Below are positions 3,644 to 57,074 of a DNA stretch of 64,000 nucleotides, piece after piece. Each line of letters starts with the position of its first letter. Within the stretch, counting starts at the first letter, position 1. The position numbers were made by a program, and so were the translations under genes. The stretch lies in NCBI GenBank assembly GCA_050736715.1, contig JBOHWK010000169.1, forward strand, positions 73 to 64,072, in the 5' to 3' direction. The DNA is from Candidatus Binataceae bacterium (lineage in GTDB: Bacteria > Desulfobacterota > Binatia > Binatales > Binataceae). The notes beneath the pieces are model-generated. The model saw only the letters and a list, made by a program, of their open reading frames with translations, was not told where the DNA came from and made no database searches.

Positions 3644-5254
3644 GTGGCGTGGGAGGACGCATCGAAATTGAAGCGGTTGGGTGGTATCGCCCGAATCGTG
3701 GCCGCGATTGCCGCAATGGTGGCTGTCGCGGGATGCGGTTATGCGCCGGGGTTTACCCGGCTGTCAAAAATCGAGCAGCCGAAACCGAAGAAATCGACGT
3801 TCTTCCTCGCTTCCGCCCACTGCCAATTGTGCCATCCCGCGGAGTACGAGGAATGGCGCACCTCGATGCATGCGTATGCGCAGCACAGCCCCGTCTTTCT
3901 CTCGTTCAACGATTTCGTCCTCAAATCGAGCGGCGGGTCGCTGGGCGATTTTTGCGAACGCTGCCATACCCCCGTCGGGATGTCGTCGGGCGAAAGCCCG
4001 GTCGAGCCTAATTCCAAGCGATCCGAAGCCGCCCTCGACAGCGTCGGCTGCATCGCGTGCCACTCGGAGCACACCAATAACGCCGAAGCGTCCGGGGTAA
4101 TCCATGTTCCGGTAAACGGCGACAGCGAACCAATTATTTACGGACCCTACTACGGCTACGACGAGCCGGGCGCGCCCAAGAATCCGGCGATGCGCCTGAT
4201 CAAAACGCCCCACGAATCGCGCCATTCCGACTATTTCACCCACGCGCGATTGTGCGCGGCCTGCCATGACGTGTTCTCGCCCGACGGCTTCCGAATCGAG
4301 GAAGCGTACAGCGAATGGAAGAACGGCCCCTACGCGCGGCGCGGCATCCAATGCGAGAACTGCCACATGGGGCCGATTCCCGGCAAACCGTTCGCGCGGA
4401 CGGAATTCACCCGCGACTACATAGTCGATCCCAATCTCTTTCCCAACGCGCCGAAGCGGTACCGCTCCAACCATCGTTTCACCGGTCCCGACTATTCCCT
4501 GCTCGCGGCGTTCGGACAGAATGCGCTCTCGCTCGACAGCGCGTCGTTCAAGAAATTGGAGGCGCAACTCGAAACCCAGCGGGAGACGTTGTTGCGCAAT
4601 GCCGCCACGATGCGGGTGAAGCTGCCCGGCGGCGTGACGGCGGGAGCGGCGCTGCCGATTACGGTCGCGGTGACCAATTCGGGTGCGGGGCATAATCTTC
4701 CGACCGGATTCGCGGCGGAGCGGCAATTGTGGCTCGAGGTGATCGTCACCGACTCAACCGGAAGGCAAATCTTCATCTCCGGCAACACCGATGAAAACGG
4801 CGACCTGCTCGATCCCGACAGCGAGGAAGTCCGCGCGGGCAAGCTGCCGATCGATTTGGACCTATTCAACCTCGAGGCGCAATTCATCAATCTCGATTTC
4901 AAGGGCACCGATGCCGAGAACATCAGCACCGTCAACCGCTTCCTCGACCCGGTTCCGTTCGTGACCCCTCCCCAGACCCCATCCCTCATCAACGGAAATG
5001 TTCCGGCGGGCCGCATCTTCAAGCGCGGAATCCCGCCGCTGGAGACGCGGACGGCGGACTACCGGGTGGAGGTTCCATGGGACGCGGCGGGTCCGCTGAC
5101 CGTATCGGTTCGGCTGCGCTACCGGAATTTGCCGCCCCATCTGCTCGCCGAACTCGGCATCCCGAAATATCGAGCGAAGCTAAGAGTCGTGGACTTGGCC
5201 ACGTTCAAGAAACAGGTTGCGATCGATTCGGCCGCGGTCTCCAGCGCGCGTTGA
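3644..5254 (+). CDS. pentaheme c-type cytochrome, predicted lipoprotein
   Basis: GTG start; signal peptide ending in lipobox VAGC; five CXXCH (CQLCH, CERCH, CIACH, CAACH, CENCH) in the first ~240 aa followed by a ~300-aa non-heme domain. Confidence 0.8.
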   Translation: MAWEDASKLKRLGGIARIVAAIAAMVAVAGCGYAPGFTRLSKIEQPKPKKSTFFLASAHCQLCHPAEYEEWRTSMHAYAQHSPVFLSFNDFVLKSSGGSLGDFCERCHTPVGMSSGESPVEPNSKRSEAALDSVGCIACHSEHTNNAEASGVIHVPVNGDSEPIIYGPYYGYDEPGAPKNPAMRLIKTPHESRHSDYFTHARLCAACHDVFSPDGFRIEEAYSEWKNGPYARRGIQCENCHMGPIPGKPFARTEFTRDYIVDPNLFPNAPKRYRSNHRFTGPDYSLLAAFGQNALSLDSASFKKLEAQLETQRETLLRNAATMRVKLPGGVTAGAALPITVAVTNSGAGHNLPTGFAAERQLWLEVIVTDSTGRQIFISGNTDENGDLLDPDSEEVRAGKLPIDLDLFNLEAQFINLDFKGTDAENISTVNRFLDPVPFVTPPQTPSLINGNVPAGRIFKRGIPPLETRTADYRVEVPWDAAGPLTVSVRLRYRNLPPHLLAELGIPKYRAKLRVVDLATFKKQVAIDSAAVSSAR

Positions 5255-5260
5255 GCCGCG

Positions 5261-6706: not shown

Positions 6707-6719
6707 GGGAGGAGCGAAG

Positions 6720-7082
6720 ATGATTAAGCAAAGTCTAATTTTGGCTGCCGCGGCCGTGCTCGCGATGCCGGCCGCGTCCGCGTTTGCCGCGGGAAACGCC
6801 GCCGCCGGCGCCGCAGTCGCCGCCAAGAAATGCGCGGGATGCCATGGCGCGACAGGCGCGGGCAACGGTCCGGAGTTGCAGATGCTGAATGTCACCGTCC
6901 CGCCGGTTCCCTGGACGGACAAGGCGAAGATGTCCAAGTTCAGCGACGCCTATCTCACCAAGATCGTCACCGATGGTGGCCGCGCGGTCGGAAAAGGGCC
7001 GCTGATGGCGCCGTTCAAGGGCAAGCTTACCGCCGCGCAGATAAGCGACGCGATCGCCTACATCAGGTCGCTCGCGAAATAG
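6720..7082 (+). CDS. monoheme class I cytochrome c (c55x/c6-like), periplasmic
   Basis: 120 aa; signal peptide; single CAGCH heme site; downstream Met-rich loop (GPLMAPFKG) typical of a Met sixth ligand. Confidence 0.8.
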   Translation: MIKQSLILAAAAVLAMPAASAFAAGNAAAGAAVAAKKCAGCHGATGAGNGPELQMLNVTVPPVPWTDKAKMSKFSDAYLTKIVTDGGRAVGKGPLMAPFKGKLTAAQISDAIAYIRSLAK

Positions 7083-7099
7083 AATCCGGCGGTGCGGGA

Positions 7100-7798
7100 G
7101 TGAAAGCTAATCCGCTCGACAGCGCATTCGCGTTTCTGAAGATCGGCCATCAACAGGGCGAGCAATGGGGCACAGCGCTCGATTGGGCGATTATCTTCAC
7201 GCTGGTCCTGAGCGCATCGATCATCGTCCTCGTAATGGTCAGCCGAGCCGCATACCGGGGACGGCAGGAACAGCCCCCGGCGATTTGGCTGAACGTGCTC
7301 GCATTGGGCATATTCCCCGTGCTGCTCCTATTTTTCGGAAATTTCGCTGTATTCAGCTACGCGGAGCAGGAGCAATTTTGCGCATCATGCCATCTCACGA
7401 TGCAGCCGTACATCAATGACATCGACAATCCAAGCAGCAAAAGCCTGGCCGCCTGGCACCATCAGAACCACTTTTCGCCGGGCGGCGAGGAGGCCTGCTA
7501 CACCTGCCACGCCGACTACGGAATTCACGGCACCTTCAGGGCCAAACTGTCGGGCCTGCACGACGCGTATGCGTATGCAACGCACACCTATCGTCTGCCG
7601 ATTAAGCTCAGGAGGCCATTCAGGAACAGCCTGTGCTTAAAGTGCCATAACAGCACCAGGCTGTTCATGGCGGTCGATTCGCACTTGGGCGAGGACAACA
7701 AGGTTTCGAGCGCAATTTTGGACAATTCGCTGCAGTGCACGGTCTGCCACGGCCCCGCGCACCGGCTCGAACAATTTAAGAAGGCGGCGAAAACTTAG
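7100..7798 (+). CDS. NapC/NirT/NrfH-family membrane-anchored tetraheme cytochrome c (quinol dehydrogenase)
   Basis: GTG at 7100 preceded by GGGAG; one N-terminal TM helix (WAIIFTLVLSASIIVLVMV) then four CXXCH (CASCH, CYTCH, CLKCH, CTVCH); ~230 aa, the family's architecture. Confidence 0.8.
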   Translation: MKANPLDSAFAFLKIGHQQGEQWGTALDWAIIFTLVLSASIIVLVMVSRAAYRGRQEQPPAIWLNVLALGIFPVLLLFFGNFAVFSYAEQEQFCASCHLTMQPYINDIDNPSSKSLAAWHHQNHFSPGGEEACYTCHADYGIHGTFRAKLSGLHDAYAYATHTYRLPIKLRRPFRNSLCLKCHNSTRLFMAVDSHLGEDNKVSSAILDNSLQCTVCHGPAHRLEQFKKAAKT

Positions 7799-7800
7799 CC

Positions 7801-8346: not shown

Positions 8347-8437
8347 CTGTTCCATGCCGGCGGATTCCTTTCGCTTGCCGATCCGCCAGCAAATTGAGTA
8401 GAGTTGGCGACGATTTGCCGATCGGGGGAAGAATGTC

Positions 8438-11071
8438 ATGAAGCGGGGGATTATAGTCGCGCTGCTTCTGTTGATCGCCGGGTTTCCCGGCAGCCTGCTC
8501 GCCGCCGCTCCCGCAAAAGCTCCCACATGTACGCCGCTGCCTGCGGCTTCGACGCCCGGCTTCGCCACGATTCTCCTGACCTACATGGACAACTTCTGCT
8601 ACCTGAGTTGGGAGCATGACGCTCAAATCCGGTCGGCCAAAGGCACCCATCCGTATGTAAAGGTCTATTACTCGCCATCAATGTGGACGTGGCTCGAAGC
8701 CGGCGACCGCGAGGCCACCGTTCCCGACGGCGCGATGCTGGTAAAGGAACAGTACCAGACCCTTACCGCGCCGCTTTCCGAATGGACGATCATGGTCAAG
8801 GACCACACCGGATCGTGGGACGGCTGGTATTGGGCGGATTTCGCTTCGCCGAAGAAAGGCCCGCCGAAGTCACCGCCGTCCGCCACGGACGCATCCGGCG
8901 CGGCAAGTACCGTTGCAGCCGCTGCGCAGGGCAAGTATGGATGCGGGGAGCCGACGCTTACTTTCGCCGGCTTCGGTTCCGGCAACGGCAACACCTGTAT
9001 CGGATGCCATGCGTCGGCGGCGGACGGCCAGGGAACCTTTTCCAGCACCGATTACGTAGGCGCGGCATTGACGCCGCCCGATCTCAACGCGCCGCCGATT
9101 CTCGACAATATCCACCAGATTGGCGCCCGCCTGGCGGATATGCGCGCGATTGCCGCGCTCGATGCCGCCGGCGCAACTCCGCTTGAGAACGCAGTATCGC
9201 CCGATGACATCCGTCCGCTCTCCGCCGGGAAGGCGGCGTGCATGCCGCCCGAATCGCTCGACCACGTGGTGGCAGGCGGACAGCCCACCGGCGGCCCGGA
9301 AGAATTCCTGACTTCGGATCAATGCGCGTCGTGCCACGATGCGACCGGGACAATCTCGGGCACGGGCCGGGCGGATATTCCGAGTATGTTGTGGCCCGAC
9401 GCGATCACGCCGCTCGCGAATCTCTCCGAATACGGCGAGTGGCGCTATTCGATGATGGGGCTGGCGGGGCGCGATCCGATCTTCTTTTCGCAGCTCAATT
9501 CGGAATCCACCATCCATGACAATCTGCAAGGATTGCCCGGCAACCCCAGCCCTCCGCTGTTCGTGCAGAACTTATGTCTTCATTGCCACGGCGTGATGGG
9601 ACAGCGGCAACTGCAGATCGATACCGGCGGCACCGGGCTCTTGTCTCGCGCGGAACTGAACGATCCGAATTCAAAATACGGCGCGCTCGGCCGCGACGGC
9701 ATCTCGTGCCTCGTTTGCCATCATATTTCTCCCGAAGGTCTGGGCGACCCTTCCACCTTCACCGGCGATTTCAACGTCGGTCCCGCGACCGAAGTTTACG
9801 CCCAGTACCCCGATCCGATAACGTTGCCGATGGATAACGCGCTGGGTATCACGCCTGAGGACGGCAGCCAGATCGGCGATCCCGCGATGTGTGGATCGTG
9901 CCACACGATCATCCTGCCGGTGTACGCCGCCAACGGGAATCAAGTCATGGAAGGCGGCGTGCCCAAAACATTTTACGAGCAGGCGACATTTCCAGAATGG
10001 CTGAACAGCAACTTCGCAACGGTTCCCTGCCAAACCTGCCATATGCCGGACACGTATCATGGCAGTCCGCTCTCGTACAAAATCGCGAACATCGAGGACA
10101 ATACCTTCCCGGCGTTCCCGTTCGTCGCCCCCGCCGAGGACATCACGATGCAAGTGCGGCAGCCGTTCAACCGCCACACTCTCCTCGGCATCAACGTCTT
10201 CGCGCTGGAGATGTTCGGGCAGTTCCGCACCGCGCTGGGGCTTTATGCGACGGACCCACAATTGCCCGGCAATGCCGCAAAGGCGATTTCCAGCCAAAAA
10301 ACCGCAGTCGTGGAAGCGGTGAATGAGGCCGTTACCCAGACCGCGACGGTCGATATTCTTTCCGCTACCAGAGTTGGCGGCACGATTCAGGCCGATGTGA
10401 CAGTGACGAACCTGGCCGGGCATAGTTTCCCGTCTGGGGTGGGCTTCCGCCGCGCATTCGTGGATTTTCAGGTGCTCGGTCCGGGCGGGAAAGTACTGTG
10501 GGCATCGGGCGACACGAATAAGAAAGGGGTGATCGTCGGCATCAAGCGCAAGCCGCTCATCACGGAATACTTCACTCCCAAGCAGCAGGCCTTCCAGCCG
10601 CACTTTTGGATCGGCAATCCGATTACCAGCGAAAACCAGGCGCAGATTTACGAGGAATTGGTCGCCGATCCGCAGGGACAATTGACCACCAGCTTTCTCA
10701 GCTTGGACAACAAGGTAAAGGACAACCGGCTCCAGCCGCAGGGATGGTCCGTGGACGGGCCGTTCGCCGAGGAAACCGGCCCGGCCGGCGGCGCGTCTGA
10801 CGACCCCGATTACACGACCACCGACAGCCCCGGCTCCAACACGATTCGTTACGAGGTGCCGATTAATTCCAAGACCACGAACGCGATCGCGGTGAGCGCG
10901 ACCTTGTACTATCAGGCAATCCCGCCCTATTACCTGTATATGCGCTCGCACGACGCGAGCGGCCCCGACACCTCCCGTTTGAACGATTTCACCAAGCGGC
11001 TGCGCGTCAAAGGCACCCCCGTGGACAACTGGCGGCTGCAAATCGCGACGCAAACGCAGAATATTCAGTAG
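8438..11071 (+). CDS. large secreted multiheme c-type cytochrome (6 CXXCH) with an N-terminal non-heme domain
   Basis: 877 aa; Sec signal; CIGCH, CASCH, CLHCH, CLVCH, CGSCH, CQTCH; N-terminal ~150 aa is aromatic-rich (FCYLSWEHD...DGWYWADF) without heme motifs; GGGGAAG RBS. Confidence 0.8.
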   Translation: MKRGIIVALLLLIAGFPGSLLAAAPAKAPTCTPLPAASTPGFATILLTYMDNFCYLSWEHDAQIRSAKGTHPYVKVYYSPSMWTWLEAGDREATVPDGAMLVKEQYQTLTAPLSEWTIMVKDHTGSWDGWYWADFASPKKGPPKSPPSATDASGAASTVAAAAQGKYGCGEPTLTFAGFGSGNGNTCIGCHASAADGQGTFSSTDYVGAALTPPDLNAPPILDNIHQIGARLADMRAIAALDAAGATPLENAVSPDDIRPLSAGKAACMPPESLDHVVAGGQPTGGPEEFLTSDQCASCHDATGTISGTGRADIPSMLWPDAITPLANLSEYGEWRYSMMGLAGRDPIFFSQLNSESTIHDNLQGLPGNPSPPLFVQNLCLHCHGVMGQRQLQIDTGGTGLLSRAELNDPNSKYGALGRDGISCLVCHHISPEGLGDPSTFTGDFNVGPATEVYAQYPDPITLPMDNALGITPEDGSQIGDPAMCGSCHTIILPVYAANGNQVMEGGVPKTFYEQATFPEWLNSNFATVPCQTCHMPDTYHGSPLSYKIANIEDNTFPAFPFVAPAEDITMQVRQPFNRHTLLGINVFALEMFGQFRTALGLYATDPQLPGNAAKAISSQKTAVVEAVNEAVTQTATVDILSATRVGGTIQADVTVTNLAGHSFPSGVGFRRAFVDFQVLGPGGKVLWASGDTNKKGVIVGIKRKPLITEYFTPKQQAFQPHFWIGNPITSENQAQIYEELVADPQGQLTTSFLSLDNKVKDNRLQPQGWSVDGPFAEETGPAGGASDDPDYTTTDSPGSNTIRYEVPINSKTTNAIAVSATLYYQAIPPYYLYMRSHDASGPDTSRLNDFTKRLRVKGTPVDNWRLQIATQTQNIQ

Positions 11072-15513: not shown

Positions 15514-15816
15514 TTTGTAACCCCCGCCGAATTCGGATCGACTCCCCGTTGCAGGACCAATCAGCGTTGCGCGTGTTAACTACCTTTTTCCGGCGGCAAT
15601 TTCAAGAGCACCGCAATTATTTTTGTGGCTGCGCCCGGCGGCGAGGTCGCCGGCCGTCGCTCCGGGAAGTCCGTCGTACTTGACAAGGCGGGGATCGGAA
15701 TGGTACCTAAGCCGCGTCCGCAGAGCGTCGCCTGCACTGGCGGGCGATGGGGTCTCCCGGCCGGGGCCGGAAGATTTGCGATGCCGCGAGAGCTCCAATT
15801 TGGCTTGGGGGTAGGT

Positions 15817-17754
15817 ATGCAGCACGGGAACATGGGACGCATGACGAGGGGGCGGATATTGCTCGTGGCCGCAATCGCGGCGGCGGCGACCTTGTGGTCC
15901 TCCGCCGCGATGGCGACGATCACTCAGGGCGATTTTTCCGTTTACGGATTCTTCGAGACCCGCGAATCGGGCCGCTGGGGCGAGGCCAGCGTCAAGAACA
16001 ACGGCACCCAGACCACCTACACTCATCCCATTCCGGGTGCGACCGAAGTTCTAAAGGGCGGGCAAGCAGGCAGCTACACCGGGGGCAGCTTCGATTTCAA
16101 TCATTGGGACCTGGTGGAAGCTCGCCAACTCGGCGACATCCGCCCCGACTATCATTTCGTAAAAAACTACAAATTCCTCGGTCGGTTCGACACGATTCTC
16201 CTCAAGGATGCCGACTTCTTTGCGTTGTGGCGGCCGTGGTACGACGCGGAAGGAGACCTCAAGAGCCAAGGAGTCGCCAACACCAACCGCGATTGGAACA
16301 ATTACCAGCACTACCAGATCACGCAGCAATACATCCGGGACGATCTGCACGAATATTACGCACAGTTGAATTTCACCGATAATTTCTCCGCGCGCATCGG
16401 CAAGCAGCAGGTAATTTGGTCGGAGGCGGACGCCTTATCGGGCACCGAGATCACCAACTCGGTGGACACCACCTATCACTGGCTGAACTTCGAATCGCCC
16501 GAAGACCTGCGCAAGAACGTGCGGATGATCAAGTTCAACTACATTCTCCCCGATATGTACAAGACCGCCAACAATGAAATCGACTTTTTCATTATTCCCG
16601 GCGATTTCCAGGGCGATGGCATCAATGTCAATCTCGGCGACGCCCGCAATCCGTGGACGCCGCCGGCGGCCGGCAGCCATTCGGCGTTGCTGTCGTCCTC
16701 GTACAACCAGAACGGCGAACCGTATTACGCCGCGACACCGCAACGGAGCGGCGCCGCGCCGATGACTCTGGTTTCGGCCGCGGGCGGCGGCGGCACATTT
16801 TTCGACCTGATGGAGGAGCCGTACGGCCACCCGCCCAGCAACTCGCTGGAAAACAGCGAATTCGGAATGCGCATCTCGAGCCTGCTGCCGATTGGCAACG
16901 GCCTCCAGATGAGTTTCATCTATTTGTACGAGGCGCGCGACTCCAAAATCAGCCTGTGCTCGAGTTGCGGTCCGCTGCAAGCGCAGCGGGCTTCGGCGGA
17001 ATTCATGGGGGCCGGTGCAAGGGCCTCGAACTGGGAATATCCGCCGGGAGGAATCGCGGCGCCCGCCGGGACCTTCGTCAATTTCGGCAACTACCGGTAT
17101 GGCTTCCCGCGCGCCGGCGTGCCGAAGGCCGGGACGGTGCTGGTCATGTACAACACCGATTACCGCCGCAATAACTTCTTCGATTTGACCGGCACCTATT
17201 ACGACAAGGACCTCACCGACATCGTGTACCGCTACGACTTTTTCTACGCCCCGAAGGTGGGTATCGCCACCGTCGAACCCTACGGAAAACTGGCCGGCCT
17301 GCCGGGTCCGGGAGCGGCGGGACAATGGACCCAGGAGTCCCGCTGGATCGTGGCCGCTGACCGGCCGACCTATATCCCGTGGATTTCCAAGCAGCACACC
17401 TTCCTGACCTTCCAGAACACCCTGACTTGGTATCCCGCCCTGCCGGAGCATGCGGTGGCCAATCTGCTGCAAACCGCGGGGAAGATTCGCGAGACCAGCG
17501 ATCTGTTTTTGGTGGCCGCGACCGATTGGCTGATGAACGGCCAGTTGACGACGCTGAATGCGGCCGCGTGGGACGTCGACGACCGCGTCGGCGAAATTAC
17601 CACCAGCAATTCGTACCGCTATTCGCGCAACGTTCTGTTCGGCGTGAACAGCGTCTGGTATCTGGGACAGAGCGGTAGGTACACCGATCCTTACACCTTC
17701 AGCCGCAGCCAGGTGATGAACGAATTGGAATTCACCCTGACCTACGAGATTTAG
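15817..17754 (+). CDS. large secreted/outer-membrane protein, hypothetical (possibly DUF1302-like)
   Basis: ATG at 15817 after GGGGGTAGG; signal peptide RILLVAAIAAAATLWSSAAMA; 646 aa, Tyr/Asn/Gly-rich beta-strand-like periodicity; DUF1302 assignment is from memory of family size only. Confidence 0.5.
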   Translation: MQHGNMGRMTRGRILLVAAIAAAATLWSSAAMATITQGDFSVYGFFETRESGRWGEASVKNNGTQTTYTHPIPGATEVLKGGQAGSYTGGSFDFNHWDLVEARQLGDIRPDYHFVKNYKFLGRFDTILLKDADFFALWRPWYDAEGDLKSQGVANTNRDWNNYQHYQITQQYIRDDLHEYYAQLNFTDNFSARIGKQQVIWSEADALSGTEITNSVDTTYHWLNFESPEDLRKNVRMIKFNYILPDMYKTANNEIDFFIIPGDFQGDGINVNLGDARNPWTPPAAGSHSALLSSSYNQNGEPYYAATPQRSGAAPMTLVSAAGGGGTFFDLMEEPYGHPPSNSLENSEFGMRISSLLPIGNGLQMSFIYLYEARDSKISLCSSCGPLQAQRASAEFMGAGARASNWEYPPGGIAAPAGTFVNFGNYRYGFPRAGVPKAGTVLVMYNTDYRRNNFFDLTGTYYDKDLTDIVYRYDFFYAPKVGIATVEPYGKLAGLPGPGAAGQWTQESRWIVAADRPTYIPWISKQHTFLTFQNTLTWYPALPEHAVANLLQTAGKIRETSDLFLVAATDWLMNGQLTTLNAAAWDVDDRVGEITTSNSYRYSRNVLFGVNSVWYLGQSGRYTDPYTFSRSQVMNELEFTLTYEI

Positions 17755-23497: not shown

Positions 23498-23553
23498 CCG
23501 CCAACGCGCATTCTTCCCAGCCTAGAACGCGGCAACTCGCGCGGCTACGGCGG

Positions 23554-23892
23554 TCAGGGGCCGCGCGGCCCGATATCGTGCGAATAGGGATTCGGCTGCT
23601 GGACGCCCCATTGATTGCCCGGCAGATTTGAAGCGGGCGGCTCCGGAGGAGGGCTGGCATCGGGCGCCTGAATTTCGCCGCCGCCGGGAATCGGAATCGT
23701 CACGGTATCGGAATTGGCGGCTGCGGCGGGCTGCCGGATCGGAATGCTCGCCGGCGGTGCATAGTTGCTCGCGCCGGTGCCGTAGGCGGTATTCGGCATC
23801 GCCGCTCCCGAATCTTGCGCGCGAGCCGCGGCGGGTAAAATCGCGGCTGCCACCGCAAAGATCGACACCAGCAAAATCGTTCGGTGCAGCAT
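23554..23892 (-). CDS. small secreted Pro/Ala-rich protein, hypothetical
   Basis: 112 aa; N-terminal signal peptide (LLVSIFAVAAAILPAAARA); convergent with the carboxypeptidase gene; weak RBS. Confidence 0.4.
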   Translation of the reverse strand: MLHRTILLVSIFAVAAAILPAAARAQDSGAAMPNTAYGTGASNYAPPASIPIRQPAAAANSDTVTIPIPGGGEIQAPDASPPPEPPASNLPGNQWGVQQPNPYSHDIGPRGP

Positions 23893-24049
23893 TTAGGGCA
23901 ATTCGGCGGCATTGCGCCGGTTCATTCAAGTTAGCACGGATGGATTCGCCAGACATGATGCGAGCGGTTTGCCGGCCGCGGAGGCCGGCGCCGGCCCGAT
24001 GCCCGCGATGGCTCGCGGCGCGCGACACCCGTATAATAGCGATTCGTTC

Positions 24050-24844
24050 ATGCGTTCGTTCCGCATTCTTCCGGCATTGTGCGCGGCGCTGCTCGCCGCG
24101 GCGGCTTTCGGCGCCGAAACCGGGCAGCTTAAGCTCGACGTGATGGGCGCGCTTGGCGCGGGCGCGCGGAATCCCGCGCGCGTGATCGCGGCGAACGGCA
24201 CGGAGGCGGGACAAGTCGCGCCCGGAGCGTCGATCGCTTTGCCGCCCGGCAACTACCGGCTCGTTCTGCCGATCGTCGGCGGCGAAATCGTCAAAGACGA
24301 GGTTCAAATCGAGGCGGGACGGACGCACACCGTGCGAATCGAGAATGTCGCCGTGCTGGAAGTGAGCGTAAAGAACAGTGCCGGCAAAGACCCCGGCTTC
24401 GGCGTGACCGTGACCGCCGCCGATCCGCCGCACGCGAAGATGGCGAATTTTCTCACCGGCGACAAAATCCTGTTCGCGCCGTCCGCCGTCGATGTTCACG
24501 CGGACGCTCCGCCGCAGGGCTACGATTGGAACGCGGTGGCGCTCGCGCCGGGCCATCGCACGCGGCTGACTCTCGACGCGATCGTTGCGGCGGAATTGAC
24601 GGTCCAACCCGAATTGGCAGGCGTTGATATCGACCGCGCGGCGCGGGTGGTGGTCCTGCGCGCCGGCACGCAGCATCAGGTGGCCGCGAGCGATCCGGGG
24701 CCGGCGCATCGGTTCAAGCTTCAGCCGGGCGACTACGACATTTTTGTGGAGAACCGCTCCGGCAAAGGAAAACCTTACACGACGATCTCCGGGGTGCATT
24801 TGGAGTCCGGTGCAAGGGTGGAACGCACGGCGCCGCTGGATTAG
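24050..24844 (+). CDS. secreted hypothetical protein
   Basis: Start chosen at MRSFRILPALCAALLAAAAFGAE (signal peptide); TATAAT at 24032-24037 just upstream; the longer upstream-extended ORF in the track has no signal logic. Confidence 0.5.
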   Translation: MRSFRILPALCAALLAAAAFGAETGQLKLDVMGALGAGARNPARVIAANGTEAGQVAPGASIALPPGNYRLVLPIVGGEIVKDEVQIEAGRTHTVRIENVAVLEVSVKNSAGKDPGFGVTVTAADPPHAKMANFLTGDKILFAPSAVDVHADAPPQGYDWNAVALAPGHRTRLTLDAIVAAELTVQPELAGVDIDRAARVVVLRAGTQHQVAASDPGPAHRFKLQPGDYDIFVENRSGKGKPYTTISGVHLESGARVERTAPLD

Positions 24845-46916: not shown

Positions 46917-47109
46917 CGGGGCGCCGCATCGATGGAATCAATTTAGGCGCGGCATTGGCCGCGCCTTTTTCTTGGCGATATGTAAATTCGCCCGAAACCG
47001 CGGCGGAGTTTCGGCGTCTCAATAATTGAGGATAATGGGAACGCCGGAATTAGTCCGCCGCCAGCCGGAAGATTGCCGAAAAATAGCCGAATCCATCCCT
47101 AATATCTCC

Positions 47110-48318
47110 ATGAACTTGTCTCCCTTCAAAACTTCCGCCCGCTGGCTGATAGCCGCCGCAATAATTGTTGCGGTGGCGGTCTATTTTGTCGTTCGCGACG
47201 GTTCCGCGCCGGTCAGGTACGTCACGGAACAGGTGACGCGCGGCGATGTCGTCCGCACCGTGACTGCCACCGGAACCGTCAACCCGGTCACGACCGTCCA
47301 AGTCGGCAGCTACGTTTCCGGGCCGATCGTCGCGATTTACGCCGATTTCAATTCGCTGGTGAAGAAAAACGAGCTGATCGCCAAGATCGATCCGAAGCCG
47401 TTCCAAGTCAAGGTTGACGAGGCGGCCGCGGCGCTCGCCAATGCCAAGGCGCAGTTGATTAAGGATCAGGCCGACCTCGCCTACAAAGAAATCACCTACG
47501 AGCGCAACCGGAAATTGCTGGCGCAGGATGTAGTTTCACAGGACACGGTGGACGCCGCGCGCAGCGCCGCCGATCAGGCCACCGCGCAGATTGCGCTCGA
47601 CCGCGCGAACATCCAGCAACAGGCGGCCAACCTTGAGGATGCGCAGGTGCAACTCGGCTACACCAATATCGTGTCTCCCGTGGACGGGACGATCGTCTCG
47701 CGCAACGTCGATGTCGGACAGACGGTGGCGGCAAGCTTCCAGACCCCGACGCTGTTCCTGATCGCGCAGGATTTGACCAAGATGCAGGTCGATTCCAACG
47801 TCAGCGAATCGGACATCGGCAACGTGAAGAGCGGCGAGGACGCAACTTTCCGCGTTGATGCGTTCCCGGACCGCGATTTCAAGGGTACGGTCGGCCAAGT
47901 GCGCCAGACGCCGATCACGGTGCAGAACGTGGTGACTTACGACGTGGTCGTGAAAGTCGATAATTCTTCGCTGCTGCTCAAGCCGGGAATGACCGCCAAT
48001 GTCACGATCGTCACCGCGCAGCGCGATAACGCAGTCCGGGTGCCGCTCGACGCGCTCCGCTTCACGCCGCCGGGCACGCCGGCGCGCCCCTCCGATCTGC
48101 TCGACGCGAGCGGCAAGCCGCACCAAACGCAGGTCTGGATGCGAAGCGGCGCCGGCATTCAGCCGGCCGCGATTACGATCGGACTCAACGACGGCAGGTG
48201 GGCCGAACTACTGTACGGCAAGCTTCATTCCGGCGATCGGGTGGTGACCGACGAAATCCATAGCGCGAAGACCGCAGCCCGCGGCGGGTCGCCATTCCTG
48301 CCGCATTTCCATCACTAA
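47110..48318 (+). CDS. macA: efflux transporter periplasmic adaptor subunit (MacA/HlyD family)
   Basis: N-terminal TM anchor, lipoyl/beta-barrel adaptor motifs (VQVGSYVSGPIVAIYADFNSLVKKNELIAKIDP), coiled-coil region; directly upstream of macB. Confidence 0.85.
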   Translation: MNLSPFKTSARWLIAAAIIVAVAVYFVVRDGSAPVRYVTEQVTRGDVVRTVTATGTVNPVTTVQVGSYVSGPIVAIYADFNSLVKKNELIAKIDPKPFQVKVDEAAAALANAKAQLIKDQADLAYKEITYERNRKLLAQDVVSQDTVDAARSAADQATAQIALDRANIQQQAANLEDAQVQLGYTNIVSPVDGTIVSRNVDVGQTVAASFQTPTLFLIAQDLTKMQVDSNVSESDIGNVKSGEDATFRVDAFPDRDFKGTVGQVRQTPITVQNVVTYDVVVKVDNSSLLLKPGMTANVTIVTAQRDNAVRVPLDALRFTPPGTPARPSDLLDASGKPHQTQVWMRSGAGIQPAAITIGLNDGRWAELLYGKLHSGDRVVTDEIHSAKTAARGGSPFLPHFHH

Positions 48319-48327
48319 GAAACCCCG

Positions 48328-50463
48328 ATGCGCCCGGTAATCGAAATCGAAAATCTGACCAAGACCTACGTGCTGGGGGAGGTCGAGGTCCATGCGCTGC
48401 GCGGGGTGAGCCTCAAGATCGAGCGCGGCGAATTCACCGCGATCATGGGCGCCTCGGGTTCGGGCAAATCGACATTGATGAACATCGTCGGATGCCTCGA
48501 TCAGCCGACCAGCGGGCGCTACCTGCTCGAGGGCGAGGACGTGGCCGGAATGGATGAAACTGCGCTGGCGGCGATCCGCGGCCGCCGGATCGGATTCGTC
48601 TTTCAGAATTTCAACCTGCTCGCGCGAACCTCGGCGCTGGAAAATGTCGAACTGCCGCTTTTCTATTCGGCTTGGATGGCGGACGGCGGGCGGCGCGCGC
48701 AAGAGATGCTCAAACTCGTGGGGCTTGCCGGCCGCGAACAGAACCATCCCAACCAGCTTTCCGGCGGACAGCAGCAGCGCGTCGCAATCGCCCGCGCACT
48801 CATTAATCAGCCCTCGATACTCCTGGCCGACGAGCCTACCGGCAATCTGGATTCCACCAATTCGGCCGAAATCATGGAGATCATCACGCGGCTCAACCGC
48901 GAGCGCGGAATTACGGTGATAATCGTCACGCACGATCCGGACATGGCGCAATATGCCGACCGGGTGGTCACGTTCCGCGACGGGGTTATCGTTTCCGATA
49001 CGCGCAAGGCGGGCGCGCCGCCGGTCAAGGCGGCGCCGGCCGCCGTGGCGGAAGAACCGGCCGCGGCGGGCAAGAGCGATACGTGGACGTTCGCCATGAT
49101 GGCCGCGTTGGCGGCCGCGCGCGCGCTCCAGCGCAACAAGCTCCGCGCGGCGCTCACGATGCTGGGGATATTCATCGGCGTCGCGGCGGTAATCGCGATG
49201 GTGGCGATCGGCGACGGGGCGCGCGCGTCGGTGCAGGCGCAAATCCAAAGCCTCGGCTCCAATCTGATTATCGTGCTGCCCGGAGCGACCACGACCGGGG
49301 GCGTTCATGCCGGAATGGGCACTACTTCCACACTCATGGCCGGCGACGCGGACGCAATCAAACAGGAGGATCGGGCGGTCGCGCTGGTCACTTACATGGA
49401 CCACCAAGTGGCGCAAGTCGTCAACGGCGACCGCAACTGGAGCACCGGGATCGAAGGCGTCACCCCCAGCTATTTCGCGATCCGCGACTGGCCGGTGGCG
49501 GAGGGGCGGATTTTCACCAAGAGCGAAGAGAACAGCGCCGCGCCGGTTTGCCTCTTGGGCAAGACCGTGGTGTCGAACCTGTTCGGCGAGGATCAGAACC
49601 CGGTCGGCACCGTCGTGCGAGTGAAAAATTCTCCCTTGCGCGTGATTGGAGTGCTAACCGCAAAAGGGCAATCGTCCTTCGGCCAGGATCAGGACGACGT
49701 GGTCATAATTCCGTTCAACACCGCCGAACGCAAAGTGCTGGGTTCCTCGCAGGTGACGGCATCCGTGGCGTCATCGACCACCGGCTCGTCCAATCCGGTG
49801 CTCAATCCCTACGGCATCATTCCGCTGACCACCGCGATGAACCCGATGTACCAGACCGGCGCGCAAATCATCAATCCGTTCGGCACCGCGGCCAAAATTA
49901 CCGGCGTGGTCAACATAATTTTTGTGCAGGCCCGCAGCGCGGCCGGGGTTGACGCGGCGATGGCGCAAGTGACGCAGACCGTGCATGAGCGCCACCATAT
50001 CCAGCCCGGCCAAGACAACGACTTCACCGTACGCAGTCTGGCGGAGATCGCGGCGGCGTCGGAAGGCGCCACGAAGGTGATGACGGCGCTGCTCGCCGCC
50101 GTCGCCTCGATCTCGCTGCTGGTGGGCGGAATTGGAATCATGAACATTATGCTGGTGTCGGTAACCGAGCGCACGCGGGAAATCGGGATTCGGATGGCGA
50201 TCGGCGCCCGGCGCCTGCACATCCTGCTGCAGTTCCTGGTGGAATCGACGATGCTAAGCGTGCTGGGCGGTGCCGCCGGAATCGCGCTGGGGGTAATCGC
50301 ATCCAAGCTGATTTCGGCGCTGGCGGGATGGCCCACATTGATGTCGCCGGTTGCGGTGGTTGGAGGGTTTGTGTTTTCCGCGCTGGTCGGCATCTTCTTC
50401 GGCTACTATCCGGCGCGCCAAGCATCCCTATTGAGTCCAATCGACGCGTTGCGCTATGAATGA
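48328..50463 (+). CDS. macB: MacB-type ABC transporter (fused ATPase and FtsX permease)
   Basis: Walker [10 protein letters not shown], signature LSGGQQQRV, Walker B ILLADEPT; C-terminal FtsX permease with 4 TM helices; 711 aa. Confidence 0.9.
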
Positions 50464-50604
50464 CCCGTGCCGGAAGACCGAGATGCTTTCGCGGGGTGGG
50501 TCTAAACTTCCGGCCGGAAATTCGAACAAGAAAGCTTGACTAAGCGCCCATCAATGTGGTGGGTTAGGGAAGCCGGTTCGGGGGCCAGGAGGGTTTCGGC
50601 TTTT

Positions 50605-51906
50605 ATGGTTAGGTTGGGATTGACGAAGAAAATCGCGGGCGTGGGCGCGCTCATTGTGGGGATGGGCCTGATCGCCGCCACTGCAATGGCGGCGGGGGTC
50701 AAGCCCGGCGATGTCATCACGCCCAGAAATGCGGCGGAGGTCAAAAACCTTGTTTCGCCGGGCGTCTATTACGCCATCCAGCACGGGATGCGGATGGATA
50801 TCGTGGCGCCCGGGCAGATCGATTGGCCGCCCCCGTATCGGGATGCGACCGAGAAATATTCCTCGCAAGTGCGCCTCAGCGACAGCCATCGCTCGCTGGT
50901 GGGCTATGTCGCGGGCCAGCCGTTTCCGCTGATCGACACCAACGATCCTTACGTCGCCACCAAGATCATGTGGAACAACGTGTTCCGCCCGATTGCGACC
51001 GACGACGCCGATCTGCGGTTTTTCGACTGCCAGAGCGAGAATGTGAATCCGGGCAAAGCGCAGCGAGTGATCGATGAAATCGAAATCGGCCACCTCGGCT
51101 ATTACGCGGAGATCGGGAGGACAGAGGTCGAACCGCTCCCAATCGATCCGGATTTCAAAATTAGCAACCGAATGTTCCTCACCGCGCTGTATCCCGTGTT
51201 GGCGCCGCAGAGCGCGCGCGGCGCCGGCGCAATCCGGTATCGTTATGCGAATCCGAACCGCGGCGACGATAGCTGGGCGTGGATTCCCGGCGCCCGCCGC
51301 GTGCGCCGCCTGAATGAGGCGACCGGCAGCACCTCGGTCGGCGCGCAGACTTTCGACGCCGATCACGCGACCGGTTTCGACCCGAAGACCGAGGAATACA
51401 ATTACAAATTCCTAGGCGATCGTCCGATGCTCGCGAGCGTCCATGCGAAGCATTCGCCCGAAGTGACCTGCCCCTACGACGGCGGCGCGACCGCATGCCC
51501 CGAAAATTGGGAGATGCGCCATATGTACGTGGTTTCCGCCATGCCGCGGAAGGGAATCGGCGAGGCGGGCGACGTTGTGTTCGGCAAAACGATCGTTTAC
51601 ATGGATTCGGAAGCGTGGTTCACGCCCTATGTCGATACCTACGATCGGAAGGGGCAGCTTTGGCGCAGCAACATTTTTTGGCTCACTTACCGCGATCGCC
51701 CGGTGCCCGACGCACGCGTCGCGATCTATCCGTTCAAGCGCGAATTCGTCGTCGGCGCGAGCCGGTTTGACGTGCAATCCGGCTTCGCCACGATGTGCTA
51801 CCTGCCCGGCCAGCACACGCCGGAACGGGAATGCTGGTACATCAACATGGGCGCGGTGGACAAGACCTTCTTCACCATTGACGCGATGGTTCGGGCGGCG
51901 CCGTAA
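50605..51906 (+). CDS. secreted ~430-aa protein, paralog 1 (DUF1329-like)
   Basis: ATG 50605; signal peptide; ~60% identical to the 52104-53393 product; conserved GQPFPLID, CPYDGGATACPE, ECWYINMGAV; DUF1329 assignment rests on family size and memory. Confidence 0.6.
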   Translation: MVRLGLTKKIAGVGALIVGMGLIAATAMAAGVKPGDVITPRNAAEVKNLVSPGVYYAIQHGMRMDIVAPGQIDWPPPYRDATEKYSSQVRLSDSHRSLVGYVAGQPFPLIDTNDPYVATKIMWNNVFRPIATDDADLRFFDCQSENVNPGKAQRVIDEIEIGHLGYYAEIGRTEVEPLPIDPDFKISNRMFLTALYPVLAPQSARGAGAIRYRYANPNRGDDSWAWIPGARRVRRLNEATGSTSVGAQTFDADHATGFDPKTEEYNYKFLGDRPMLASVHAKHSPEVTCPYDGGATACPENWEMRHMYVVSAMPRKGIGEAGDVVFGKTIVYMDSEAWFTPYVDTYDRKGQLWRSNIFWLTYRDRPVPDARVAIYPFKREFVVGASRFDVQSGFATMCYLPGQHTPERECWYINMGAVDKTFFTIDAMVRAAP

Positions 51907-52103
51907 TTAGCCGCCGCCGCAAAGCGGATCGACGCCGGGGTGGCGCGGGCATGGGAAGCCGCGCCACCCCGCGCTTTTCTGGGATTAGCGGCCCGGGCTG
52001 GAATAATTATCATTCGCGATGATGGTTGGGGCGGATAAACTTGACTTTTCAACCGATTGCGTCCAAAGATTGGCTTGGGCAATTCGTCAGGAGGTCTCAC
52101 AGA

Positions 52104-53393
52104 ATGGCTAAGCGCGGGTTGGCCAAGATGCTGCTAGGCGCCACGGCACTGGCAATTGTAATGTGCTTCGCCGCGAACGGGGCGGATGCGGCCGTCAAAC
52201 CGGGCGATGTGATCACGCCCCAGAACGCGAGCCAAGTCAAAGACTTGGTATCGCCTGGTGTGTATTGGGTTGTAACCCACGGGATGCGCATGAATATCGT
52301 CCCGGCCGAGGAAATCGATTGGCCGCCGCCCTACAAGGAAGCCACCGAAAAATATTCCTCGCAGGTGCGCCTGACGCCGGACCATCGCACCCTCGTCGGA
52401 TACGTCGCGGGCCAGCCGTTTCCCCTGATCGATCCCAACGACCCGCATGTGGCGGACAAGATAATCTGGAACACGCAGTTCCGCCCGATCGCCACCGACG
52501 ACCTGGATTTGCGGTTCTTCGATTGCCAGAGCCAGTATGTGCGGCCCGGCAAGGCGCAGCGCGTGATCGATGAGATCGAGGTCGGCCATTTCGCGGCTTA
52601 CAGCCTGCTCGGCCGCACCGAGGTCGATCCGATCCCGGTCGATCCGGACTTCAAGACGACCAATCGAATGGGACTGTTCGGCCTGTATCCAATCCTCGCG
52701 CCGCAGGAGGCGCGCGGCGGCGGATTAATTCGCTGGCGCTACCAGGATCCGAGCAAGGGCGACGACAGTTGGGTCTGGGAACCGGGCGCCCGCCGCGTGC
52801 GCCGCCTCAACGAGGCGGTGCTATCGACCTCCGCCGGCGCGCAAACCACCGACCCGGACCATTACTCCGGCTTCAACCCCAAGGTTGAGGAGTACGATTA
52901 TAAGTTCCTCGGCGATAAGAATATGCTTGCCAGCGAGCACGCCGAGCATTCCCCGGAGCAGACCTGCCCCTACGATGGCGGCGCGACCGCCTGTCCGGAG
53001 GCGTGGGAGATGCGTCACCTGTACATCCTGACGGCGGTGCCGCGCTCCGGGTTCACCGGGTCGCTCGATAAGAAGACGGTCATTTACGTTGACACGGAAT
53101 CATGGGCGGAGCCTTACGTCGATAGCTACGATAGCGCCGGCAAGCTGTGGAAGACTCACATCTTCTGGAGCACCTATCGCGATCGTCCGGTGCCCGACGC
53201 GCGCATCGCGGTCTATCCCTTCCGGCGCCAGTTCGTTCTGGGCGCGGCCACGGTCGATACTCAATCGGGCCTGTCCACCATGTGCTACCTGCCCGGACAG
53301 CACACCCCGGAGCGCGAATGCTGGTACATCAACATGGGCGCGGTCAACAAGGACTTCTTCACCATCGAGGCGATGGTCAAAGCGGCCCCCTGA
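52104..53393 (+). CDS. secreted ~430-aa protein, paralog 2 (DUF1329-like)
   Basis: ATG 52104 with AGGAGG 8 nt upstream; signal peptide MAKRGLAKMLLGATALAIVMCFAANGADA; the upstream extension in the track starts at a TTG inside a TTGACT hexamer. Confidence 0.6.
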   Translation: MAKRGLAKMLLGATALAIVMCFAANGADAAVKPGDVITPQNASQVKDLVSPGVYWVVTHGMRMNIVPAEEIDWPPPYKEATEKYSSQVRLTPDHRTLVGYVAGQPFPLIDPNDPHVADKIIWNTQFRPIATDDLDLRFFDCQSQYVRPGKAQRVIDEIEVGHFAAYSLLGRTEVDPIPVDPDFKTTNRMGLFGLYPILAPQEARGGGLIRWRYQDPSKGDDSWVWEPGARRVRRLNEAVLSTSAGAQTTDPDHYSGFNPKVEEYDYKFLGDKNMLASEHAEHSPEQTCPYDGGATACPEAWEMRHLYILTAVPRSGFTGSLDKKTVIYVDTESWAEPYVDSYDSAGKLWKTHIFWSTYRDRPVPDARIAVYPFRRQFVLGAATVDTQSGLSTMCYLPGQHTPERECWYINMGAVNKDFFTIEAMVKAAP

Positions 53394-55242: not shown

Positions 55243-55344
55243 GATGTTCTCTCCGCCGTTCGTTCGACCGCGAATGGACGAGCACCCGCGAACAGTCCGC
55301 AGCACAGAAAATATTGAAGCTGGAGAGTTTGGAATGAACCGGAA

Positions 55345-55502
55345 CGCAGTGCCGTTCCGTCCACGTGCGGCGGGATTTGTCGCGCGGTCGCCCGCGCGGT
55401 TTGTCCGCCGCTATCGATTGTGGAACCGGGAAGCCATCCGCCGAATCTTTCGATAAGCTCCCTCCTCGTCAACTCGCGGAAATCCCGCGAGCCCTGGCGC
55501 TA
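55345..55502 (-). ncRNA. glmS ribozyme: glmS ribozyme (GlcN6P-responsive self-cleaving riboswitch) in the glmS 5' leader
   Basis: Minus strand reads ...GUAGCGCCAGGGCUCGCGGGAUUUCCGCGAGUUGACGAGGAGGGAGCUUAUCGAAAGAUUCGGCGGAUGGCUUCCCGGUU...; matches the conserved P1 start (A^GCGCCAG) and P2/P2.1 core (UUGACGAGGA.GGAG.UUAUCGAA...UUCGGCGGAUG.CU.CCCGG) of known glmS ribozymes; 3' boundary approximate. Confidence 0.7.
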
Positions 55503-55654
55503 CTCTCTCAATTTCACCCGCTCTGTCTTGTCCGATGCCTCCTCGCAAATTCCTCTCCGATTATCCCGGCGCACGCCCCGCCGTTCAAGCGCGCGCGTGG
55601 CGACAAATGCGGTCCCCCTAATTTGGTACCAGAAACCACTGAATTAGGAGGTTA

Positions 55655-55701
55655 TTGACCGCACCCCGGCATTCTGCTACTAACTTAGTAGATTTTAGTA
55701 G
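55655..55701 (+). promoter_or_regulatory. candidate promoter with overlapping palindromic operator upstream of fic
   Basis: TTGACC (55655-55660)-N17-TACTAA; inverted repeat CTACTAA-c-TTAGTAG (55677-55691) plus a third TTAGTAG copy at 55695-55701. Confidence 0.4.
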
Positions 55702-55724
55702 AACTTTGGAATGAAGGCTGGACG

Positions 55725-57074
55725 ATGAAAAAGCCCCAAGAAGCGCCAACCTACGCGCAAATTACCGAGGCTTTTAGAAAATCCGCGCTTCCGACGCACG
55801 AGTTCGAAGTCATGTTCGAGAAAGTGCGTGGACCGCTTGTCGGCGGAAAATATCTGCATTGGGACGAGCTTCAATATCGGGAACCTCCCAAGGGGCTATC
55901 CCGCGAGCACTGGTGGGTTCTCTTGAAGCTTAACCGCCTAGCCCAGCGACAAATCACTCCCTTTTCTGGCAAGAGCAGCGCTCCTTTCGGTTATGTTCTA
56001 GCGGACCCTATTCCCCAGCGCCTCCATGAGATCGACCTGCGGGCGGGCGGGCAAATCAAAATGCCGGAGCAGGTAACCAATCACGAGACCAAAGACGAGT
56101 ATTACGTAAGTTCTTTAATTGAAGAGGCGATTACTTCGAGCCAGTTGGAAGGAGCGGTCACGACCCGCCAAGTGGCCAAGGAAATGCTGAGAACCGGCCG
56201 GCCGCCTCACGATCGCAGCGAACGGATGATTCTCAATAATTTTCTGACGATGCAAAGAATCGGCACAATCAAGGATCGGCCGCTCAGCAAGGAACTGATC
56301 TTCGAGATTCACCGGCAGGTGACAGACGAGACCCTTGACGATCCCAGCGCAGCGGGCCGGTTCCGCCGGGAGGACGAAGCCGTCGGCGTTTACGACGATA
56401 CCAAGGGCAAGCCGGTATTGTTGCATCAGCCGCCCCGAGCTTCCGAACTTGAGGATCGAGTTCAACGGCTCTGCGATTTCGCAAATCGATCCGAGCCGTT
56501 CGTCCACCCCGTCATCAGATCGATCGTGCTCCATTTCATGCTTGGGTACGATCATCCCTTTGTCGATGGCAACGGCAGAACCGCCCGCGCCTTGTTTTAC
56601 TGGTCGATGCTGCGGCACGGCTATTGGCTCGCTGAATTCATCTCAATCTCGGGAATCGTGATTAAGGTGCCGGCGCAGTACAGCCGCGCATTCCTTTTCA
56701 CTGAGACGGACGAAGGCGACCTGACTTATTTCATCCTGTATCACCTGGAAATCGTGATGAAGGCGATTGCGAGCCTCTATGAATACATCGCCCGGAAGAC
56801 GGAAGAGATTCGAACGGTTGAGGCGGAGTTACAGGGCATTGAACTGTTGAATCATCGGCAACAAGCTTTGGTTCGGCACGCCATGCGGCATCCGGGAAAG
56901 CGATATACGGTCGAGGAACACCGGCGCAGTCACAATGTTTCGTACGAGAGCGCCAGATCCGATCTCCTCGACTTGGACCGGCGCGGGCTCCTTGCGAAAC
57001 GTAAAGAAGGAAAAAAGTGGATATTCACGCCACAACCGCCACTGGCGGTGCGGTTGGCCGCCCTGAAAACGTAG
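55725..57074 (+). CDS. Fic-family protein (AMPylase-type Fido domain with C-terminal winged-helix region)
   Basis: Canonical Fic motif HPFVDGNGRTARAL; 449 aa; gene GC ~50-55%, well below the genome background. Confidence 0.85.
   Translation: MKKPQEAPTYAQITEAFRKSALPTHEFEVMFEKVRGPLVGGKYLHWDELQYREPPKGLSREHWWVLLKLNRLAQRQITPFSGKSSAPFGYVLADPIPQRLHEIDLRAGGQIKMPEQVTNHETKDEYYVSSLIEEAITSSQLEGAVTTRQVAKEMLRTGRPPHDRSERMILNNFLTMQRIGTIKDRPLSKELIFEIHRQVTDETLDDPSAAGRFRREDEAVGVYDDTKGKPVLLHQPPRASELEDRVQRLCDFANRSEPFVHPVIRSIVLHFMLGYDHPFVDGNGRTARALFYWSMLRHGYWLAEFISISGIVIKVPAQYSRAFLFTETDEGDLTYFILYHLEIVMKAIASLYEYIARKTEEIRTVEAELQGIELLNHRQQALVRHAMRHPGKRYTVEEHRRSHNVSYESARSDLLDLDRRGLLAKRKEGKKWIFTPQPPLAVRLAALKT

Follow-up and report, generated by a model that had tools for sequence, protein, structure and literature searches.

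A probable glmS ribozyme with conserved lineage-specific flanks in the glmS leader of Candidatus Binataceae

The 5' leader of glmS in a Candidatus Binataceae genome contains an RNA element that is very probably a functional glmS ribozyme (RF00234), giving product feedback on GlcN6P synthase in Binataceae. All 4227 Rfam families were scanned against the entire 64-kb window (the whole stretch of DNA that was analysed), and RF00234 was the sole family to reach its gathering score. The match lies at 55512..55357 on the minus strand, covers the full length of the model (positions 1-167 of 167) and scores 98.5 bits (E 8.6e-22). A sequence-only reading of this DNA had proposed a glmS ribozyme core in the minus-strand glmS leader and a cmsearch comparison with the RF00234 gathering threshold, which is 37 bits and is well exceeded here. 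The strings that it quoted are present as stated, namely A^GCGCCAGG, in which A55501 and G55500 flank the scissile bond, and UUGACGAGGAGGGAGCUUAUCGAAAGAUUCGGCGGAUGGCUUCCCGG at 55473..55427. It placed the element at 55345-55502, which identifies the right element but is too short, since the Rfam match runs from 55512 to 55357 and conserved flanks continue to 55322. Where it gave ~180-260 nt before the glmS start, the cleavage site lies 258 nt and the tail end of P3.1 118 nt 5' of the ATG; the Rfam match ends at 115 nt. The ribozyme is on the same strand as a full-length GlmS gene (TIGR01135, 777 bits) and lies in its 5' leader. From sequence comparison, the family membership, the architecture and the link to glmS can be regarded as established, and we infer the GlcN6P dependence and the cleavage position from the biochemistry of the family (PMC4152352, PMC2258182, PMC11602151).

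Around the cleavage site the minus strand reads GAGAGAGUA^GCGCCAGGGCUCGCGGGAUUUCCGCGAGUUGACGAGGAGGGAGCUUAUCGAAAGAUUCGGCGGAUGGCUUCCCGG. The window is identical to the Rfam consensus at 47 of the 55 highly conserved positions, and the eight differences are all peripheral or compensated: the upstream A, one position in the P1 loop, both halves of a P2 pair (G-C replaced by A-U), two positions at the P3 loop, the second base of the GNRA loop (GUGA replaced by GCGA) and one internal-loop base. The core strand GACGAGG, UCGGCGGAUG, the cleavage site and the A-rich internal loop of P4 are all intact. The core was mapped through the B. subtilis numbering of PMC11602151, where the functional residues are G36-A43, C38-G55 and G39-C54 (P2.1), with G67/A68 near the active site. 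The core GACGAGGA, the CG at 55452-55451 and the GGAUG at 55439-55435 are invariant across Binataceae. Within the cleavage context A^GCGCC, C2-C5 pair with the GGCG of UCGGCGGAUG as P2.2, which is complementary at four of four positions and invariant in 12 sequences. P4.1 is capped by a GNRA loop with a pyrimidine at position 2 (GCGA in the window, GUGA in relatives) and is flanked by ACAAAC and ACAAAU, the A-rich internal loop in P4. Both are traits of the family, in which the A-rich P4 loop packs on P2.1 (PMC2258182, PMC11602151). The 191-nt element of the window has a folding energy of -84.9 kcal/mol (z = -3.4), and its centroid structure gives P0, P1, P2, P3, P4, P4.1 and P5. The strands assigned to P3.1 are those that we take to be given in the crystal-structure papers, together with the covariation seen here. 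By every feature that a sequence can test, the element was confirmed as a well-conserved member of RF00234. The coordinates are collected in Table 1.

Table 1. Features of the glmS leader and gene, in window positions
Feature	Position	Strand	Basis or remark
Sigma-70-type promoter: -35 TTGAAC (55588..55583), 17-nt spacer, -10 GATAAT (55565..55560)	55560..55588	-	consensus scan
5' leader, would-be upstream cleavage fragment, ~53 nt (41-72 nt in relatives)	55502..55553	-	alignment; extent rests on the inferred start
GAGAGU, 5' strand of putative P0, positions -7 to -2	55502..55507	-	invariant in 12/12 Binataceae
glmS ribozyme (RF00234 match)	55357..55512	-	Rfam match; pairing and covariation counts
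Predicted self-cleavage site, A55501 (A-1) / G55500 (G1)	55500..55501	-	RF00234 alignment ...aA^GCGCC; established family knowledge
P2.2	55499-55496 with 55442-55439	-	
P1	55493-55485 with 55479-55471	-	
Core GACGAGGA	55470-55463	-	equals B. subtilis G36-A43
P2.1	55468-55467 with 55452-55451	-	
P2	55462-55458 with 55433-55429	-	
P3	55428-55424 with 55419-55415	-	
P3.1	55423-55420 (CCAC) with 55364-55361 (GUGG)	-	
P4	55411-55405 with 55373-55367	-	
P4.1	55398-55392 with 55387-55381	-	capped by GNRA loop GCGA, 55391-55388
P5, extra hairpin directly 3' of the P3.1 tail, outside the Rfam model	55340..55359	-	covariation and RNAalifold
AAACUCUCC motif; ACUCUC (55328..55323) is the 3' strand of putative P0	55322..55330	-	alignment
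Rest of 3' leader, with SD GGAGAG	55243..55321	-	poorly conserved; motif-to-ATG 88-217 nt in relatives
glmS, glutamine--fructose-6-phosphate aminotransferase, 611 aa	53407..55242	-	TIGR01135 776.6 bits, NF001484 791.6 bits, full length

Relatives were taken from the DNA around GlmS proteins that are 75-80% identical to that of the window. Eleven more distinct Binataceae lineages (L081, L084, L087, L170, L171, L172, L173, L175, L177, L178 and L180), among them Ca. Binatus soli, carry RF00234 5' of glmS on the coding strand, with scores of 77-90 bits. The published architecture, including the pseudoknots, was written out, and its pairs were counted on the alignments. In 11 sequences, 96.2% of the cells were paired and both partners had changed in 11 pairs. 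The observed values were not attained in any of 500 shuffles, and sliding the structures by 1-3 columns left only 34-38% of the cells paired. With flanks and 12 sequences, 94.7% of the cells were paired and 14 pairs were compensated, and the slid controls over both alignments paired at 33-41%. The compensated pairs fall in P1 (3-4), P2 (1), P3 (1), P4 (3) and P4.1 (1-2). P3.1 is 100% paired, and one of its pairs covaries (UCAC with GUGA in L087 and L088). P2.1 and P2.2 are invariant in Binataceae and in the glmS ribozyme family overall (PMC2258182), and because they never vary, covariation neither supports nor contradicts them. These counts demonstrate, at the level of the alignments, purifying selection on the ribozyme across the family Binataceae.

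The glmS gene starts with the ATG at 55242, and its product begins with MCGIVGY, so the catalytic Cys2 is present. Its Shine-Dalgarno (SD) sequence, the GGAGAG that the sequence-only reading had given as the ribosome-binding site of glmS, was found at 55254..55249. A Candidatus Binataceae MAG (lineage Candidatus Binatota; Binatia; Binatales; Binataceae) encodes a protein 100% identical to it, NCBI MGH7815186.1. A rough neighbour-joining tree of GlmS places the ribozyme-bearing group within Binatia and other Deltaproteobacteria-type lineages, with loci L001 and L091 as sister to the entire group and L179 as sister to Ca. Binatus soli. Identity to two Firmicute enzymes is only 40-51%. Judged by these relationships, the GlmS of the window is native to Binatia and not Firmicute-like. 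Co-transfer of glmS and ribozyme from Firmicutes was ruled out on the nesting in Binatia and the 40-51% identity; glmS being native, the ribozyme did not arrive together with the gene.

The unusual phylogenetic placement noted from the sequence was borne out by the Binataceae origin of the MAG and by reviews that call the ribozyme Gram-positive, but the GC content of ~67% was an overestimate, as the 64-kb window has a G+C of ~0.63 overall and 0.61-0.66 per 4-kb window. The proposed diderm host is reasonable, though not proven, because a MacAB-type tripartite efflux pump and LolA-like proteins fit a two-membrane envelope. The window carries ordinary chromosomal genes, namely those for ATP synthase beta, a sigma-70 factor, DNA polymerase III delta', Fpg, a DD-carboxypeptidase, a prepilin peptidase and multihaem cytochromes. 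The stretch 3644-11071 encodes a series of large multihaem or cytochrome-c-like proteins (c554-like at 3644..5254, NapC/NirT/MtrC-like at 6830..7798, an 877-aa protein at 8438..11071 and an unannotated 481-aa ORF between them) and may be an extracellular or periplasmic electron-transfer module. Three long ORFs had no Pfam match at E <= 1e-5, at 13024-15513 (minus strand, 829 aa), 15625-17754 (plus strand, 709 aa) and 23522-24799 (minus strand, 425 aa); some of these may be spurious opposite-strand ORFs, the DNA being GC-rich.

Directly 3' of glmS and convergent with it, a cluster at 47026-53393 encodes, on the opposite strand, two tandem DUF1329/LolA-like proteins, a MacB-type ABC transporter and a membrane-fusion protein of the HlyD family. 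The linkage is kept, as MacB and/or DUF1329 genes also lie 3' of glmS in L081, L087, L177, L178 and L180. On the 5' side, the ribozyme leader of several relatives is immediately preceded by glmU in the same orientation (L081:1229-2617, L171, L174, L175 and L178), in the order glmU, promoter and ribozyme, glmS. In the window itself, glmU is absent from the entire 64 kb, and 5' of the glmS leader, past the stretch 55513-55724, lies a divergent Fic-domain gene (55725..57074, plus strand). Promoter, ribozyme and glmS have therefore moved together, as a single unit. Between the divergent Fic and glmS genes there is also an AT-rich island at 55677-55702, 23-48 nt 5' of the Fic start codon. It contains a perfect inverted repeat of 7 bp, CTACTAA-G-TTAGTAG (55691..55677), and a 10-bp spaced direct repeat of TCTACTAA (55702..55695 and 55692..55685). 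This island looks like an operator.

Among the non-Firmicute GlmS loci outside the ribozyme-bearing group, the element was not detected. Genome and metagenome scans with GlmS gave mostly 50-55% relatives. No RF00234 match at gathering level was found at the next-closest GlmS loci, L001 (73%) and L091 (72%), or, for L001, at a permissive E-value. In these two loci, glmU is followed by glmS after 122 and 185 nt, respectively. The ribozyme was likewise absent from two other Binatia (L002 and L003) and from every other non-Firmicute GlmS locus of the scans (58 by Rfam, all by nhmmer and a core regular expression). One locus, L144, was considered as a second unusual high-GC carrier and was discarded; its contig proved to be Paenibacillaceae, so its ribozyme is an ordinary one. 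L179 (GlmS 75.6% identical, on a 629-kb contig) is nested among the carriers and has no ribozyme, leader or promoter. There, GlmU ends 6 nt 5' of the glmS ATG (L179:1480-1510, ENA ERZ25039474 contig_18190), an arrangement that suggests the whole cassette was cleanly lost in a secondary event. On the GlmS tree, then, the ribozyme is lost at least once within the Binataceae clade, and its wider pattern may reflect a gain at the base of Binataceae or repeated loss elsewhere. Two other RNAs were seen near glmS in these loci. Another Binataceae MAG has, ~1.1 kb 3' of glmS, a group II intron domain (RF02001, 94.3 bits; L180:3975-4144, minus strand), and an Acido-Lenti-1 RNA (RF01687, 57.5 bits) lies just 3' of glmS in an Acidobacteriaceae MAG (L018:4963-5008, minus strand); the latter was the sole Rfam match among the 20 nearest species-representative GlmS loci.

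Whole leaders were aligned, with the Anoxybacillus (L181) and Paenibacillaceae ribozymes as comparators. Four traits lie outside the Rfam model and are missing from both comparators: the promoter, GAGAGUA, P5 and AAACUCUC. The promoter pattern TTGAAC-N17-(G)ATAAT is kept at the same place in other Binataceae loci, also where glmU is directly upstream, and the predicted transcription start is near 55553. The resulting 5' fragment contains a CGAGG(U/A)G motif ~35-45 nt 5' of the cleavage site, at 55538-55546 in the window (GCGAGGAGG, with the conserved CGAGG at 55545..55541) and at the same place in other Binataceae leaders. It resembles the core GACGAGG(U/A)GG and, in L084 and L171, serves as the SD of a short ORF that ends at a UAG spanning the cleavage site. 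A leader peptide was rejected on the alignment; the AUG...UAG ORF occurs only in those two loci, is not conserved and is missing from the window, L081, L087, L170, L172, L173 and L175. The idea that the leader CGAGG(A/U)G copies the core GACGAGG(A/U)G and covaries with it was also rejected, because L081 has A in the leader and U in the core, so the two do not change in concert.

The heptamer GAGAGUA (55507..55501) ends at A-1 and is invariant in 12 of 12 Binataceae sequences. Downstream, P5 forms a hairpin with the strands CGGAACG and CGUUCCG in the window and CAGAGC and GCUCUG in Ca. Binatus; across 12 sequences, 97% of its cells are paired and three of its six pairs are compensated. P5 and a U-rich stretch were considered as an intrinsic terminator and rejected. 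In Ca. Binatus, 6-7 nt separate the U run from the stem; in the window the run is missing, and a terminator scan found none there. The octamer AAACUCUC follows 26-33 nt past the P3.1 tail, is invariant in 12 of 12 and is followed by C in 11 of 12, within a leader that is otherwise variable in sequence and length. GAGAGU and ACUCUC are exactly complementary and would form the 6-bp helix P0; by a rough, post-hoc estimate, a perfect 6-bp match between conserved blocks of 7 and 8 nt is expected at ~6/4096. RNAalifold predicts P0 and P5 unprompted. In constrained folding, with the ribozyme held as a block, P0 reached 5.7-5.9 of 6 bp in six of nine uncleaved leaders. P0 remains a prediction, since neither of its strands ever varies. 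Most likely, P5 and GAGAGU/ACUCUC would form a helix that closes the domain and serves to insulate the ribozyme fold, or to stabilise it, within a GC-rich transcript. A structural role is favoured for the AAACUCUCC motif because its spacing is fixed to the ribozyme and not to the SD.

The proposed mechanism follows that of the family. Transcription would start at the conserved promoter ~50 nt 5' of the ribozyme, and the RNA would fold into the double-pseudoknot core (P2, P2.1 and P2.2), propped by P1, P3/P3.1 and P4/P4.1. Accumulated GlcN6P would bind a pre-formed pocket and act as cofactor for cleavage at A55501/G55500. Cleavage would yield 2',3'-cyclic phosphate and 5'-OH ends, removing the triphosphorylated 5' leader and leaving the glmS message with a 5'-hydroxyl end, resulting in less GlmS synthesis. 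According to Collins et al. (2007, cited in PMC4152352), the 5'-OH cleavage product is degraded in Bacillus by RNase J1, a 5'-OH-sensitive 5'-to-3' exoribonuclease. A tblastn search of the window and of ~1 Mb of fetched loci with an approximate B. subtilis RNase J1 query gave no RNase J-type gene. The nested lineage L179, which manages without the ribozyme, counts against the feedback reading.

Several other explanations can be weighed against product feedback by mRNA cleavage. A rather doubtful proposal extends it, treating the Binataceae ribozyme as structurally enlarged, with the RNA alone inserted between native glmU and glmS. As P0 would span the scissile bond, self-cleavage would release the AAACUCUCC motif irreversibly as a single strand, and glmS would be silenced by occlusion of the ribosome-binding site or by nuclease entry, giving an expression platform without the RNase J1 pathway. 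The ribozyme could also be real and its output translational, which is improbable: P0 would hold ACUCUC until cleavage, the short 5' fragment would then dissociate, and CUCUCC would pair with the SD and block initiation, a route that would work without RNase J. The strict conservation and exact complementarity of GAGAGU and ACUCUC in all 12 lineages and the P0 pairing predicted in uncleaved leaders speak for such a switch, as does the fact that CUCUCC could pair without a mismatch to the SD GGAGAG of the window and of L081. After cleavage, pairing of motif and SD is predicted in four of nine loci, and the unpaired probability of the SD drops in eight of nine. In the window, however, this pairing amounts to only 0.17 bp, most Ca. 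Binatus SDs (AAGGAGCG, AAGGAAC) allow only 3-4 bp, and the distance from motif to SD ranges from ~80 to 210 nt while the spacing to the ribozyme is fixed, which points to a structural role. The duplex of the motif with the translation initiation region of the window (-13.2 kcal/mol) is the third strongest of 38 genes, but this rank against 37 other initiation regions is not significant, because any CUCC pairs with any SD. An anti-SD switch, tried by constrained folding of cleaved and uncleaved leaders at nine loci, found no support in the window and was not conserved, and it is kept at low probability.

It is very improbable that the ribozyme mainly processes read-through glmU-glmS transcripts and so uncouples the cistrons, as a cis counterpart of RNase E processing in E. 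coli. GlmU (TIGR01173) does lie on the same strand directly 5' of the ribozyme leader in several relatives, the sister lineages have glmU and glmS 122-185 nt apart without a ribozyme, and E. coli processes glmUS in a 161-nt spacer (PMC4152352). Against this, a conserved promoter stands between glmU and the ribozyme in all loci, and the ribozyme is fully conserved in the window, where there is no glmU and the upstream gene is divergent; such processing would also be compatible with feedback and does not exclude it. That the element is a decaying relic or a chance match, or the contig a mis-binned Firmicute fragment, is hardly credible. The Binataceae scores of 77-98 bits, compared with 142 bits in a Firmicute example, and the loss in L179 could be read in this way, but the E-value of 8.6e-22, compensatory covariation over 12 lineages, the position of GlmS inside Binatia (40-51% identical to Firmicute GlmS), the synteny with other Binataceae contigs (MacB and DUF1329 downstream) and a GC content of ~63% throughout the window argue against it. 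Product feedback through a functional glmS ribozyme is therefore the preferred reading.

The finding extends the range of the family into a GC-rich lineage related to the former Deltaproteobacteria, in the uncultured soil phylum Binatota. In the literature that was searched, no paper links Binatota, Binatia or Binatus with glmS or riboswitches. As an annotation it is routine at the Rfam level, and standard automatic pipelines may already make it because the match is so strong. It is made more interesting by where the ribozyme is inserted, between the native glmU and glmS genes, by its uneven occurrence in the clade and by the conservation of the P0/P5 extension. A cassette between native glmU and glmS, with sister lineages that lack the ribozyme and one loss inside the clade, offers a natural experiment. 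It also raises a testable question, namely how a 5'-OH mRNA is silenced in Binataceae, to which the invariant flanking helix is a candidate answer.

The glmS ribozyme is usually presented as the means by which Gram-positive bacteria keep GlcN6P in balance, a task that falls to small RNAs in enterobacteria. Reviews treat it as a Gram-positive mechanism that occurs in only a few bacterial groups (PMC4152352, PMC2258182, PMC5473149). In E. coli, glmUS is controlled by GlmZ, GlmY and RapZ with RNase E, that is, by trans-acting small RNAs and a protein adaptor (PMC4152352). Binataceae would share with E. coli the post-transcriptional GlcN6P feedback on glmS, together with the glmU-glmS junction and probably two membranes. 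In contrast, no ribozyme is detectable in the 161-nt spacer of E. coli, whereas a cis-acting ribozyme fills the Binataceae spacer, and no GlmY or GlmZ family reached the Rfam gathering score in the 64-kb window.

The Bacillota members of RF00234 (B. subtilis, B. anthracis and Thermoanaerobacter tengcongensis) are the same as Binataceae in A^GCGCC and in the core (GACGAGG, UCGGCGGAUG). They also share P1, P2, P2.1, P2.2, P3/P3.1 and P4/P4.1, the GNRA cap with a pyrimidine at position 2, the A-rich P4 loop and the location in the 5' UTR of glmS. The Bacillota comparator was Anoxybacillus amylolyticus (L181), at 142 bits; the Binataceae elements score 77-98 bits and belong to a GC-rich Binatota host, probably with two membranes. 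In Binataceae, P3 is short, its 4-nt loop is used wholly for P3.1, and P2 is one pair longer. The ribozyme lies between glmU and glmS and not after glmM. Compared with Anoxybacillus and the Paenibacillaceae example, Binataceae adds P5 and the invariant GAGAGUA and AAACUCUCC flanks.

Deinococcus-Thermus bacteria were already known as non-Firmicute carriers. Their glmS ribozymes, reportedly described by McCown, Roth and Breaker in 2011, are reported to have extra stems in the catalytic core and altered core-supporting substructures. Binataceae resembles these variants in being a non-Firmicute, GC-rich lineage with probably two membranes and in having stems beyond the consensus. The two would differ in where the additions are placed: the Binataceae core is canonical, and P5 and the putative P0 lie outside the 3' and 5' ends.
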